Source: a virus
DNA: 39,860 nucleotides
Virus genome (UHGV): UHGV-0224961
Reading direction: 5' to 3' (one strand)
Shown: positions 5,145 through 39,609 of the stretch, in pieces
Numbering within the stretch: the stretch's first letter is position 1
How the letters are laid out: the number at the start of each line of letters is the position of its first letter
Made by a program: the position numbers and the translations under genes
The notes under the pieces: model-generated
What the model saw: only the letters and a program-made list of their open reading frames with translations
What the model was told of the DNA's origin: nothing
Databases searched by the model: none

Positions 5145-5234
5145 TTACCTCGGTCTGTTACCGTTGAGGTAATGATTATGCGTATTTGGTTTGGTGTCAA
5201 TAGATATGAGTTAAAAAAATTACCCGTTAGGTAA
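5145..5234. promoter_or_regulatory. OL-like operator cluster: two perfect TTACC-N5-GGTAA palindromes (5158-5172, 5220-5234) plus a TTACC half-site
   Basis: Palindromes lie between the repressor terminator and the first leftward early gene. Confidence 0.6.
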
Positions 5235-5245
5235 TCAAATAAGCA

Positions 5246-5269
5246 ATAAAAAAGCCGCCAGAAGGCGGC
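5246..5269 (-). terminator. Rho-independent terminator of the repressor transcript
   Basis: gccgcc-agaa-ggcggc stem-loop with an A-run on the plus strand (U-run on minus) immediately 3' of the repressor stop. Confidence 0.65.
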
Positions 5270-5291
5270 TTACTTACTGAAAAATATGTTT

Positions 5292-5876
5292 TTATTGTTT
5301 GTTTTTTTCGTTCTGGTTGATGACAAATTCAATGTAACTTTCGATCTTTGCCTTCTCTGTTTCAGGTAACAATGCGTAGCGCGAGCGGTCATAGTTGATA
5401 GTCGCGGGGTCGTGCGGGTGAATCAGTAATTCATATCCGTGACGCCCAAATGCGGATGCAACATTCTCCAGGGTGGAAATGGAAACGCTGACCTCATTGT
5501 TTAACAGGCGGCTGATTGTTACCTGGGCGACGCCGGATGCGCGGTGAAGTTTTCCCTGCGTTGAAAGGTCGCGGCTTTCGCTCATCCAGCGTTCCAGGTT
5601 GTGAGCCGCCAGTTGACCAATGTCGCTTGGTCCGACAGGCTGAAAACCTTCCTGAGAAAGCGAGCGATCGATATCAAGCCAGTTACGGGGTTTATTGGCG
5701 GCAGCTTCAATTTTTCGCGCAACCTGGTCGCCGATAACCTTCTTGCCAAGAGCCCAGCGGTTTACCAGATTTGCCTGAGTTCCAAGTTTTTCAGCCATCC
5801 GCGTCTGAACACCATTGAATTCACGGTCGATCAAGTCGTTGAGATTTTGCCTGCGGACGTCCTGGATACTTTTCAT
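5292..5876 (-). CDS. CI-like repressor with two HTH-like regions and no S24 peptidase domain
   Basis: 194 aa; N-terminal XRE-type HTH (TRMAEKLGTQANLVNRWALGKK); second HTH-like segment (ASGVAQVTISRLLNNE); no G-S-M / Lys autocleavage motifs seen; flanked by operator clusters. Confidence 0.75.
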   Translation of the reverse strand: MKSIQDVRRQNLNDLIDREFNGVQTRMAEKLGTQANLVNRWALGKKVIGDQVARKIEAAANKPRNWLDIDRSLSQEGFQPVGPSDIGQLAAHNLERWMSESRDLSTQGKLHRASGVAQVTISRLLNNEVSVSISTLENVASAFGRHGYELLIHPHDPATINYDRSRYALLPETEKAKIESYIEFVINQNEKNKQ

Positions 5877-5931
5877 TTTCTGGAAAATCGCCTCATATCT
5901 GAATCAGAAGATGATTCAATTTAAAGCAATA

Positions 5932-5994
5932 TTACCCAACAGGTAAATGCACCTCATGGGTAACTATCCTTGATTTTTGTTACCTTATAGGTGA
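5932..5994. promoter_or_regulatory. OR-like operator cluster: TTACC-CAACA-GGTAA (5932-5946), GCACC-TCATG-GGTAA (5949-5963), TTACC-TTATA-GGTGA (5980-5994)
   Basis: One perfect and two imperfect palindromes in the 154-bp divergent region between the repressor and the cro-like gene. Confidence 0.65.
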
Positions 5995-6030
5995 ATATTT
6001 ATTATCTGAAATAAATATCAGGCAATAGCT

Positions 6031-6261
6031 ATGAGCGATAACGGACATTTCGATTTCAAAAAGCACTGGCTTGCACTTACTCCGGATGAGCGTGAAGCCT
6101 TCGCACAGGAAGCCGGAACGACGAGTCACTATATCCAGACTCACTTAACAGGTAAGCGCAAAATGCCAGGTAAGGTATTGATGAATGGGCTTTTTAAAGC
6201 CTGTAAATCAAGACAATGGCTGCGCTCAAAAGCAGAACTGGCATACTTCTTCTACTCATGA
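6031..6261 (+). CDS. Cro-like HTH protein
   Basis: 76 aa; divergent from the repressor; HTH-like segment LTPDEREAFAQEAGTTSHYIQTHLTGKRK. Confidence 0.65.
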   Translation: MSDNGHFDFKKHWLALTPDEREAFAQEAGTTSHYIQTHLTGKRKMPGKVLMNGLFKACKSRQWLRSKAELAYFFYS

Positions 6262-6411
6262 TATCCAGCCACAACCCTCTGTAGACCGCCATCCGGCGGT
6301 CTTTTCATATCTATTCGCACCTTGAGGGTAATAAAAAACCAAATGTGGTTGATCTTTTTTTTGTGTCAGCACAAAATGACCGTAATCCCAATACAAATAA
6401 CAGGGCTTACC

Positions 6412-8238: not shown

Positions 8239-8315
8239 TTACCTGATGGGTAATAAAATATTCTAGTATCTATTGATTTCATGTCTTATGTGGTTTTTAA
8301 TTACCTAAGGGGTAA
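8239..8315. promoter_or_regulatory. Two perfect TTACC-N5-GGTAA palindromes (8239-8253, 8301-8315) bracketing a TATCTA-N14-TATGTGGTT promoter-like motif
   Basis: Second palindrome ends 3 nt before the ATG at 8319. Confidence 0.55.
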
Positions 8316-13260: not shown

Positions 13261-13293
13261 TTACCACAACGGTAACTATTACCACGGTGGTTA
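13261..13293. promoter_or_regulatory. Operator-like TTACC-ACAAC-GGTAA (13261-13275) plus imperfect TTACC-ACGGT-GGTTA (13279-13293) immediately upstream of terS
   Basis: Same palindrome family as at the repressor gene. Confidence 0.5.
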
Positions 13294-15514: not shown

Positions 15515-15591
15515 GAACTGGAAGCAATGAGTTATGCCTTCCGTGGCTGTACTGGTTTACAGCATGAAGTCATCGCAATGGCGTCCTGCTG

Positions 15592-15677: not shown

Positions 15678-15754
15678 TGGCGTGGCATGCAGGATTCGAA
15701 CCTGCGACCAACCGCTTAGAAGGCGGTTGCTCTGTCCAACTGAGCTAATGCCAC
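15678..15754 (-). tRNA. tRNA-Arg (anticodon UCU), phage-encoded
   Basis: Reverse complement folds as a canonical 77-nt cloverleaf: acceptor GTGGCAT/ATGCCAC, D-stem GCTC/GAGC, anticodon stem ACCGC/GCGGT, loop CTTCTAA, T-stem GCAGG/CCTGC, TTCGAAT loop, discriminator G, CCA encoded. Confidence 0.85.
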
Positions 15755-16076: not shown

Positions 16077-16143
16077 TTACCTGAAAGGTAATAATTCTCG
16101 CGTTAAATGTCAACTATCTACGATAAATAAATCATATGTGGTT
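16077..16143. promoter_or_regulatory. Perfect operator TTACC-TGAAA-GGTAA (16077-16091) plus TATCTA-N14-TATGTGGTT motif (16115-16143) upstream of the head operon
   Basis: A minus-strand TTGACA -35-like hexamer at 16108-16113 points leftward toward the tRNA. Confidence 0.5.
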
Positions 16144-32169: not shown

Positions 32170-32343
32170 GTGTTTTTAATTATTTTGAGTGTGATAATTT
32201 CTGGTGGGTTGTTATTTATTGACCGCTACAAATATTTTCTTAACCCTCAGACTCAAGCTATTTGCTGGTTCATCTTTGTTGTGCAGGGAATAGTTCTTGT
32301 TGCAAGCCTTATTGAGGGGAGGCCTCTGATTTTTACTGGGTAA
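32170..32343 (+). CDS. Small hydrophobic protein (57 aa; GTG start)
   Basis: Hand-translated VFLIILSVIISGGLLFIDRYKYFLNPQTQAICWFIFVVQGIVLVASLIEGRPLIFTG; GGAAG RBS; below the ORF-track cutoff. Confidence 0.3.
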   Translation: MFLIILSVIISGGLLFIDRYKYFLNPQTQAICWFIFVVQGIVLVASLIEGRPLIFTG

Positions 32344-32355
32344 ATAGGTGACTAC

Positions 32356-32652
32356 ATGCAAGCTATAGGATTCATTGTTTATATCGTCGTTGGTCTTTTT
32401 CAGTTGGCAGCAATTATGGCTGGGCTTGAATCATGGTGGGGATTGCACTGGATAATTGCAGCCCCCATTGCTTTCATCGTGAGCTATATTCCATTTGTTG
32501 GAGCGATTGTTGGTATGGTTGGCGCTGTGGATGTATGGCGGTGGGAGTGGTGGCAGGCTGGCCTTCTCTTCTTTGGTGGGATCATCTTTGCTATTGTCTG
32601 CGGTGGAATGTCATCATTTTTCGAATGGCTATCATTCAGAAAAAGAGCGTGA
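32356..32652 (+). CDS. Small integral membrane protein (about 3 TM segments)
   Basis: 98 aa, very hydrophobic; stop codon lies inside GTGACATGTCAC. Confidence 0.5.
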   Translation: MQAIGFIVYIVVGLFQLAAIMAGLESWWGLHWIIAAPIAFIVSYIPFVGAIVGMVGAVDVWRWEWWQAGLLFFGGIIFAIVCGGMSSFFEWLSFRKRA

Positions 32653-32660: not shown

Positions 32661-32686
32661 AGGCCGCTCTTGCGGCCTTTAAATTT
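32661..32686. terminator. Terminator-like hairpin aggccgc-tctt-gcggcct between convergent genes
   Basis: 7-bp stem followed by ttaaattt. Confidence 0.5.
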
Positions 32687-32942
32687 ACCGGGTTTGTTTT
32701 CGTAATTGTTCGGCACAATAGTCGAGATGTGTTTGCAGATCCCGCATAGACATCTGTGAGCTGGTGACGTAGTTAATCAGTGCAGTCAGTTCGGCAAGTG
32801 GGCCATCGACATTAAATCCATCCTTATCGAGATCCCGGAGTAATTTCATCAAGTGCGATCCCTCCACCAGTGACCTGACGCCTCCCGGCGTGTGAATCCT
32901 TTCGGTAAATCCGTCTTCCAGTGGATAGTGATACTGCTGCAT
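32685..32942 (-). CDS. Small protein (85 aa) behind a LexA box; candidate SOS-inducible antirepressor
   Basis: Start ATG 32942 with GGAGAAG RBS; LexA box 22-37 nt upstream; an alternative start at 33008 would place the box inside the coding sequence. Confidence 0.5.
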   Translation of the reverse strand: MQQYHYPLEDGFTERIHTPGGVRSLVEGSHLMKLLRDLDKDGFNVDGPLAELTALINYVTSSQMSMRDLQTHLDYCAEQLRKQTR

Positions 32943-32963
32943 CTTATCTTCTCCATGCAATAA

Positions 32964-32979
32964 CTGTATATTTATACAG
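32964..32979. promoter_or_regulatory. LexA (SOS) box CTGT-ATATTTAT-ACAG
   Basis: aACTGTATATTTATACAGTa matches the E. coli consensus TACTGT(AT)4ACAGTA with one spacer change; contains a TATAAAT -10-like element on the minus strand. Confidence 0.7.
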
Positions 32980-33018
32980 TAGCAAATAATTTGTTTGCTA
33001 TCCAGCACGTTTTGCGAA

Positions 33019-33073
33019 TCACCTGAAAGGTAATATCTGTTCGTATTTATGGGTTATCTATCCATATGTGGTT
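33019..33073. promoter_or_regulatory. Operator-like TCACC-TGAAA-GGTAA (33019-33033) plus TATCTA...TATGTGGTT motif (33055-33073) upstream of the tailspike
   Basis: Same motif family as at 8239 and 16077. Confidence 0.5.
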
Positions 33074-38317: not shown

Positions 38318-38471
38318 CATGGCATTTTTCATGGTACTGATTTCCGGTGACGGTATATAAAACGGTACTAGAAAAATGAAGTTTTGGAAAAATGTTATCA
38401 CTCAATTGGTTATGATTGTCGTAAATAATTGAGTGGGAATGATTTGATCCCTGCACTATGAATTAGCAAAA

Positions 38472-38535: not shown

Positions 38536-39075
38536 TTAGTTAAACCAGCTGTCCGATTTGTTCTCTTCTGCTTTGCCCACGCTTTTCATCAGATCGCGAC
38601 CGCCTTCAGTCATATTCCTGTTTGCGTCAGCTTCAGATTGCACCACATCGGTTTGCGCAGCTTTGTGCTTCAGTTCCTGATCGATAAATTCGTTTTCTCG
38701 CTTAACGCGGGCTTCTTCTTTCGCCAGCGCCAGTTTTTGTTTCTGAATCTCTAAGCTGCGTAGCTCATCTTCATAACTTTGATCGCGTTTCTTGTCCGCA
38801 GTGGCTTCGGCGTCCAGTTTATCCTGACGAGCTTTCTTATTCGCCGCTGCCGTTGCCGCTCTTTTATTAGCCGCGGCCTGGGCGTTTGCGCGACGTTGCT
38901 TCTCTTGCTGGATTTCCCTGTTGCGCTCCGCGACCCATTCGTCATGCTGCCTTTGCTCTTCATTTTTACCTTGCTGTTCCGCTTCTGCGACAGCAGAGAG
39001 TTGATCCTGCAATGATGAGGCGATAGCCGGATAGCTTAAGGAGGCTAAGATGGCGCAAAGAAAAACTTTCTTCAT
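38536..39075 (-). CDS. Secreted charged coiled-coil protein (probable host or cargo gene)
   Basis: Signal peptide MKKVFLCAILASLSYPAIA; Lys/Glu/Ala/Gln-rich. Confidence 0.6.
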   Translation of the reverse strand: MKKVFLCAILASLSYPAIASSLQDQLSAVAEAEQQGKNEEQRQHDEWVAERNREIQQEKQRRANAQAAANKRAATAAANKKARQDKLDAEATADKKRDQSYEDELRSLEIQKQKLALAKEEARVKRENEFIDQELKHKAAQTDVVQSEADANRNMTEGGRDLMKSVGKAEENKSDSWFN

Positions 39076-39090
39076 GACTCCTCCTGATTA

Positions 39091-39609
39091 TTAGCTCTTT
39101 TCAGGACATTTGGTATTTGGCTGAATACGCGTTTCGTTATACGTCGTGGTAATAACAACGGCTAAACCTGTCGTAAACTGGCACTCTTTACCCACCTGGG
39201 TGGAGGTATACACTTTGGTGCCTTCCTTATACGTTAGAGAAACACCTTCCACTAAGGTTTTATCATTCACCATAGAACCTGCTGCCGCGCCAACAGCTCC
39301 GCCGCCAACTGCACCTGCCGTCGTTCCGGAATTGCTGCCAGACCCCACGTTGTGGCCGATAACACCGCCAGCGACTGCACCAATAAGCGCGCCGAAGGCT
39401 TGTGCGTTTCGTTTATTTTGGGAGTTGTCTACGGCAACTTTTGCGGGAAGAATGGAAATAATATTAACGGTTTTAGTTTCTTGTTTGGTATTCAGTTGAT
39501 CGGTTTGATAAACATCGGCGGCATGATCATCAGCATTTGACTGGCATCCTGCCAGAGTGAATGACGCTAACATTGCCACAGGCAGAAGACATTTTTTAAA
39601 TTTCATCAC
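39091..39609 (-). CDS. Lipoprotein with glycine-zipper motif (YcfJ-like)
   Basis: Lipobox FTLAGC; GALIGAVAGGVIGHNVGSG glycine zipper. Confidence 0.7.
   Translation of the reverse strand: MMKFKKCLLPVAMLASFTLAGCQSNADDHAADVYQTDQLNTKQETKTVNIISILPAKVAVDNSQNKRNAQAFGALIGAVAGGVIGHNVGSGSNSGTTAGAVGGGAVGAAAGSMVNDKTLVEGVSLTYKEGTKVYTSTQVGKECQFTTGLAVVITTTYNETRIQPNTKCPEKS

Follow-up and report, generated by a model that had tools for sequence, protein, structure and literature searches.

The immunity region of an integrated phiV10-like E. coli prophage encodes an S24-less, two-domain repressor and an Ant homologue preceded by a LexA box

The window analysed here, a stretch of 39,860 nucleotides, holds an integrated phiV10-like Uetakevirus (epsilon15-type podovirus) prophage of E. 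coli. The DNA surrounding the repressor gene rep is 98.5% identical to phiV10. In phiV10 coordinates, window position 1 is 26735 and window position 38444 is 26736, two neighbouring positions, and the guaA-type att core ATTGAGTGGGAATGATT is found at 38428-38444, at the right prophage end. This core sequence, from the 3' end of guaA, is given for phage ZX5 (PMC9782041). Since its ends map in this way and the att core lies at 38428-38444, the window consists of the integrated prophage and about 1.4 kb of host DNA past 38444, with two leftward ORFs (38536-39075 and 39091-39609). The immunity region is present in 539 of 5426 complete E. coli genomes (about 10%). A tRNA-Arg gene (anticodon TCT; 15678-15754, minus strand) separates the terminase module from the head module, an arrangement also seen in SPC32H. 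The genes of the switch and the parts of the repressor are located as follows.

5252-5271, minus strand: Rho-independent terminator directly 3' of rep
5292-5876, minus strand: rep, immunity repressor Rep, 194 aa, ATG start, 100% identical to phiV10 gp40 and ZX5 ORF21
5295-5624, minus strand: Rep C-terminal domain, aa 85-194, homologous to SPC32H Rep 92-198
5436-5561, minus strand: XRE/HTH_3 fold in the C-terminal domain, aa 106-147, followed by C-terminal helices
5691-5876, minus strand: Rep N-terminal domain, aa 1-62, basic Cro/CI-like HTH
5748-5774, minus strand: Rep recognition helix, aa 35-43, carrying the genus-invariant NLVNRW (aa 36-41, 5754-5771)
6031-6261, plus strand: cro-like gene for a 76-aa protein (phrog_35, transcriptional repressor), divergent from rep
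32685-32942, minus strand: ant, antirepressor of 85 aa sharing 87% identity with SPC32H Ant; ribosome-binding site GGAG
32964-32979: LexA (SOS) box core CTGTATATTTATACAG, CTGT-N8-ACAG, 22 nt upstream of the ant ATG

The start of Rep, MKSI, is invariant in homologues of six phage clades. No recognisable Shine-Dalgarno sequence is found within 10 nt of the rep ATG (5877-5900), likewise in SPC32H, and no rep promoter is picked up by the consensus scan. The transcript that maintains rep expression may have no leader, or its translation may be weak, as with the lambda cI message made from PRM.

With 30 homologues as input, AlphaFold2 predicts for Rep (mean pLDDT 78) a wholly helical protein of two domains, aa 1-62 and aa 85-193, connected by a disordered linker in which aa 74-81 have pLDDT below 50. 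The preliminary description, made from the sequence alone, had presented the protein as a 194-aa repressor with two HTH-like regions. This agrees with the two helical domains of the model and with the Pfam matches, one to HTH_3 and one, weak, to a Cro/YdaS-type HTH. The second region, placed near residues 110-130, coincides with HTH_3 (PF01381, XRE-type) at aa 106-147 (E=1.2e-9, 38.5 bits against a gathering cutoff of 23). The N-terminal region had been called XRE-type, which is correct only in part. An HTH is present at aa 21-61, but it is of the weak Cro/YdaS type (YdaS_toxin, sub-threshold, 21 bits against 30), and the XRE/HTH_3 threshold is passed only by the C-terminal one. PHROG repressor families match aa 1-76 (E=3e-11 and 4e-10), and a PHROG repressor match also covers the whole protein.

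The claimed lack of an autocleavage domain and of an Ala-Gly cleavage site is borne out as well. The Pfam profile HMM search returns no Peptidase_S24 match in Rep even at E<=10, the 194 residues contain neither an Ala-Gly nor a Cys-Gly dipeptide, and Rep has no cysteine. Since the predicted model is all-helical and without a beta strand, the S24 fold is absent from Rep. Among the clusters of Rep homologues the S24 domain is found in 0 of 86.

Rep is homologous to SPC32H Rep (5D50_A), which matches it over its full length (aa 1-190, E=4e-42, 42% global identity) and shares with it the two-domain layout and the Pfam pattern. The C-terminal fragment of SPC32H Rep, 5D4Z, matches with E=4e-20. Foldseek with the Rep model ranks 5D50 and 5D4Z at the top, with TM of 0.65-0.74 for the C-terminal domain, and the next matches are ordinary XRE-family HTH proteins, for example NHTF and SinR. 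The two repressors differ along their length, with 54% identity in the N-terminal domain, 25% in the linker and 37.5% in the C-terminal domain. Besides phiV10 gp40 (PhiV10p40) and ZX5 ORF21, several further E. coli Uetakevirus repressors are identical to Rep. The phiV10 record describes gp40 as having 'two helix-turn-helix motifs (PF01381); similar to putative repressor epsilon15p38'. In the SPC32H study the C-terminal domain of Rep is reportedly the tetramer core and the Ant-binding site, not a DNA-binding site.

We infer that the N-terminal domain of Rep reads the operator DNA, because NLVNRW of its recognition helix and the TTACC/GGTAA half-sites of the operators are both invariant and because the N-terminal domain is basic (computed pI 10.0), whereas the C-terminal domain is not (pI 6.2). 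Both the helix and the half-sites are unchanged over six Rep clades of 42-100% identity. This invariance spans Uetakeviruses of Salmonella, E. coli, Enterobacter and Klebsiella, and only the 5-bp spacers of the operators differ. In lambdoid phages immunity specificity diversifies through half-site changes. Unlike there, it seems not to have been diversified in this way in Uetakevirus.

With at most one mismatch to TTACC-N5-GGTAA, 12 sites are found in the window against 0.66 expected, and none of 100 shuffles reaches 12. The list with two mismatches is mostly background (39 sites against 10.9 expected), and sites from it were accepted only if positionally conserved in relatives. The promoters named below are consensus matches only. 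The operators and control regions are arranged as follows.

136-150: operator-like site preceding int, 1 mismatch, with the same sequence in phiV10 and SPC32H
5158-5234: leftward (PL-like) control region, operators 5158-5172 and 5220-5234, 62 bp apart
5200-5172, minus strand: predicted leftward promoter of the recombination operon, TTGACA-17-AATCAT, flanked by the PL-like operators
5932-5994: rep/cro divergent control region, operators 5932-5946 (exact), 5949-5963 (2 mismatches) and 5980-5994 (1 mismatch)
5977-6005: predicted rightward promoter, TTGTTA-17-TATTAT, overlapping operator 5980-5994
6317-6331: weaker operator with 2 mismatches (1 in phiV10), past the terminator of the cro-like gene
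8239-8315: two operators 62 bp apart, 8239-8253 and 8301-8315, on either side of the promoter for the operon that follows the replication genes
13261-13293: neighbouring operators 13261-13275 and 13279-13293, immediately before the start of the terminase small-subunit gene (terS)
16077-16091: single operator upstream of the head/portal operon
33019-33033: operator with 1 mismatch in the ant/tail-fibre divergent intergenic region

The operator positions match their equivalents in phiV10 and SPC32H, and the epsilon15 GenBank record labels their counterparts as repressor-binding: at terS, the head operon, gp19(ant)/tailspike, PL (three sites) and after the replication genes, the same places as here. 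The three rep-cro operators are spaced by 17 and 31 bp, against 17 and 30 bp in SPC32H. Other details set the two phages apart, as the operator spacers are of mixed sequence here and A/T-rich in SPC32H, and two operators lie left of rep here against three there. The sites before int, the post-replication operon, terS, the head operon and the tail-fibre gene imply that Rep would directly repress nearly every transcription unit. The site at 136-150 could be an att-arm or Int-related element rather than an operator.

Operator pairs 62-63 bp apart are kept in seven genomes, and the 17-18-bp spacing is kept in five of those seven. This conserved pairing fits a Rep tetramer occupying two palindromes, not a simple dimer. 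The preliminary description had taken the 15-bp operator to fit a dimeric binder. The palindrome itself, TTACCCAACAGGTAA at 5932-5946, stands, and each palindrome would take two N-terminal domains, but the dimer is an incomplete account, as the operators are paired and SPC32H Rep, according to secondary accounts, binds DNA as a tetramer with paired DNA-binding domains from different dimers (PMC9638917; bioRxiv 10.1101/2025.11.27.690993). In SPC32H Rep the palindromes are bound by the N-terminal domains, and tetramer assembly and Ant binding fall to the C-terminal domain (PMC9638917). For this reason we do not take the C-terminal domain of Rep for a DNA binder, although it is of XRE type.

The preliminary description had also expected induction to depend on a partner protein and had pointed to the LexA-controlled gene at 32685-32942, and both suggestions are supported by the relationship to SPC32H. 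The product of this gene, Ant, is 87% identical to SPC32H Ant (5D50_E, E=1.4e-46). The gene sits between the virion genes and the tail-spike gene, in the same position as in SPC32H, with which the prophage shares its gene order. No Pfam family covers Ant, and its PHROG matches are limited to phrog_450, phrog_15539 and the C-terminal part of phrog_1760. In ZX5, phiV10 and epsilon15 it is annotated as hypothetical, the epsilon15 homologue being gp19. By tblastn, no second Ant or Rep paralogue is found in the window.

The predicted LexA box, the 20-mer AACTGTATATTTATACAGTA at 32962-32981, agrees with the consensus at 18 of 20 positions and is the only good LexA box in the window. In each of the four genomes compared (the window, phiV10, SPC32H and epsilon15), 22 nt separate the box from the ant ATG downstream of it. 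Two further occurrences of CTGT-N8-ACAG, at 15547 and 20089, have 8-11 mismatches to the 20 consensus positions and lie inside structural genes; we treat them as chance.

The C-terminal domain of Rep is only 37.5% identical to its SPC32H counterpart, whereas Ant is 87% identical, so that conservation of the Rep-Ant interface is an assumption here. SPC32H Ant reportedly must tetramerise and contact both Rep domains. Tetramerisation and the two-domain contact could explain the strong constraint on Ant. The 33 residues of the Rep C-terminal domain that are invariant genus-wide, in six Rep clades, are candidates for the Ant interface.

We suggest that Rep and Ant of this prophage very probably work by the SPC32H mechanism. 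The N-terminal HTH of Rep would read the 15-bp TTACC-N5-GGTAA palindromes, while the C-terminal XRE-fold domain would assemble the tetramer, so that one tetramer is placed on two palindromes bracketing or overlapping a promoter. The targets would be the leftward and rightward early, post-replication, terminase, head and ant/tail-fibre promoters. Upon DNA damage Rep, having no S24 domain, would stay uncleaved, and autocleavage of LexA would derepress the small ant gene. Ant would then bind Rep, chiefly at the C-terminal domain, and break the DNA-bound tetramer, thus releasing lytic transcription.

We infer from SPC32H, from ZX5 and from induction data that Rep forms a tetramer and is contacted by Ant, that LexA binds its box and that induction takes this route. 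In SPC32H, according to secondary accounts, tetrameric Ant binds two Rep dimers and breaks the Rep tetramer (PMC9638917; bioRxiv 10.1101/2025.11.27.690993). For the SPC32H group of phages PMC7380047 describes a repressor that is not cleaved and that is inactivated by an Ant made after LexA self-cleavage. Overexpression of ZX5 ORF21, the protein identical to Rep, abolishes free phage and lowers endolysin mRNA by 99.99%, with endolysin and holin mRNA both down by more than 99.9% (PMC9782041). ZX5 was found to be mitomycin-C inducible in the same study, and a DNA-damaging microcin induces phiV10-species prophages 21-47-fold (bioRxiv 10.64898/2026.05.26.727859). The model of induction through a partner protein thus appears to be right, its mechanism coming from SPC32H, and it is already published for the genus.

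Two extensions of this mechanism may be considered, and we regard them as unlikely. Ant might be a genus-wide 'universal' inducer that cross-induces Uetakevirus prophages, or Q107, Q118 and R123 might give the C-terminal HTH a DNA- or partner-binding role that is absent from SPC32H Rep.

That both HTHs bind DNA, with the C-terminal XRE/HTH_3 reading a second element and making Rep a dual-specificity binder, we consider very unlikely. The element in question would be, for example, ATGTGGTT, which has four copies only in the window (6343, 8288, 16136 and 33066, plus strand), each in a regulatory intergenic region and always beside operators. Three of them, at 8288, 16136 and 33066, have a Rep operator 30-45 bp upstream, and 4-7 nt after each comes either a GGTAA(T) half-operator or a full operator. 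The fourth, at 6343, is only 12 bp beyond the weak operator 6317-6331, and no operator follows it. The layout is kept in phiV10, SPC32H and epsilon15, and in the latter two the motif is of (T/A)TGTGGTT type. In favour of a second reader, the C-terminal HTH exceeds the Pfam HTH_3 threshold, and Q107, Q118 and R123, at typical XRE DNA-contact positions, are invariant in 30 homologues of at least 52% identity. However, Q107 and Q118 become E and P in SPC32H and epsilon15, and yet the motif is kept there, so that it shows no covariation with the C-terminal helix changes across the genus. The acidic to neutral pI of the C-terminal domain beside the basic N-terminal one, and the role of the C-terminal domain as tetramer core and Ant surface in the published account of SPC32H Rep, speak against it too. 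Moreover, ATGTGGTT falls where the -10 promoter element is expected. We therefore reject it as the DNA target of the C-terminal HTH; it probably serves as the -10 core of rightward promoters under Rep control, or else another regulator binds there.

It is likewise highly improbable that Rep is the repressor but that induction bypasses the small Ant and proceeds through another antirepressor of Bro-N type, through proteolysis or through competition by the Cro-like protein. This possibility is raised by the ZX5 study, in which the Bro-N protein ORF4, not the small Ant, is named as the antirepressor, its overexpression lowering lysogeny (PMC9782041). It may also be argued that Ant, being far more conserved than its presumed target domain, could have another target. 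In phiV10 and ZX5 a Bro-N gene (or a gene for Bro-N plus an Ant-like part) does lie downstream of ant. However, the prophage in the window has no Bro-N gene: the segment 32163-32685 does not align to that part of phiV10, and its place is taken by small membrane-protein ORFs, 32170-32343 and 32356-32652 (phrog_3075; weak holin-like Pfam match). Furthermore, ZX5 ORF4 (L010:2074-2769) is itself a Bro-N domain (aa 17-107) fused to an Ant-like C-terminal domain, the last 74 residues of ORF4 being 43% identical to the Ant described here. Because ORF4 ends in this domain, its effect against lysogeny is indirect support for the action of an Ant domain on an identical Rep. This also clarifies the ZX5 study, as the 'anti-repressor' tested there is a Bro-N protein with an Ant-like C-terminal domain. 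Finally, the only strong LexA box of the window sits on ant.

A cryptic, RecA-stimulated self-cleavage of Rep, as in lambda CI or LexA, with ant being incidental, would also fit the DNA-damage inducibility of phiV10-like prophages, but it is hardly credible, given the missing S24 match, the all-helical fold with none of the S24 beta structure, the missing Ala-Gly and Cys-Gly dipeptides, the S24-free homologue clusters and the different route taken in the SPC32H group (PMC7380047).

The Rep/Ant antirepression switch which we assign to this prophage is already known for the phage genus, its structure has been solved in SPC32H, and the protein identical to Rep has been deposited and partly tested. 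The switch of SPC32H was reportedly described by Kim & Ryu in 2013 (J Virol) and by Kim et al. in 2016 (PNAS), with the structures PDB 5D4Z and 5D50. SPC32H is a Salmonella phage, whereas the host here is E. coli; the domain layout of the repressor, the offset of the LexA box from ant, the operator half-sites and the dispersed operator positions are common to both. In epsilon15, also with a Salmonella host, the repressor gp38 is 42% identical to Rep with a divergent C-terminal domain, and the epsilon15 GenBank record cites 5d50_A. phiV10 and vB_EcoP_ZX5, in which the repressor is identical, differ from the present prophage by the Bro-N (or Bro-N plus Ant-like) gene. The ZX5 study draws no link of its system to SPC32H or LexA (PMC9782041).

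The logic of an uncleavable repressor and a small, SOS-induced inactivator that binds it is shared with 186 Tum, Gifsy/Fels-2 Ant and N15 AntC (PMC7380047). However, we detect no sequence relationship of these proteins to Ant, and the repressor families differ. With the lambda CI/LexA type, Rep has in common the N-terminal HTH followed by a C-terminal oligomerisation domain, the operators flanking divergent rep and cro genes and the SOS-linked induction. Unlike these repressors, it has no S24 domain, cleavage site or Ser/Lys dyad, and its C-terminal domain has an XRE fold made of helices.

In about 10% of complete E. coli genomes rep is now labelled 'helix-turn-helix domain-containing protein' and ant 'hypothetical protein'. 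Both genes can be named, as those of Rep and of the putatively LexA-controlled Ant.
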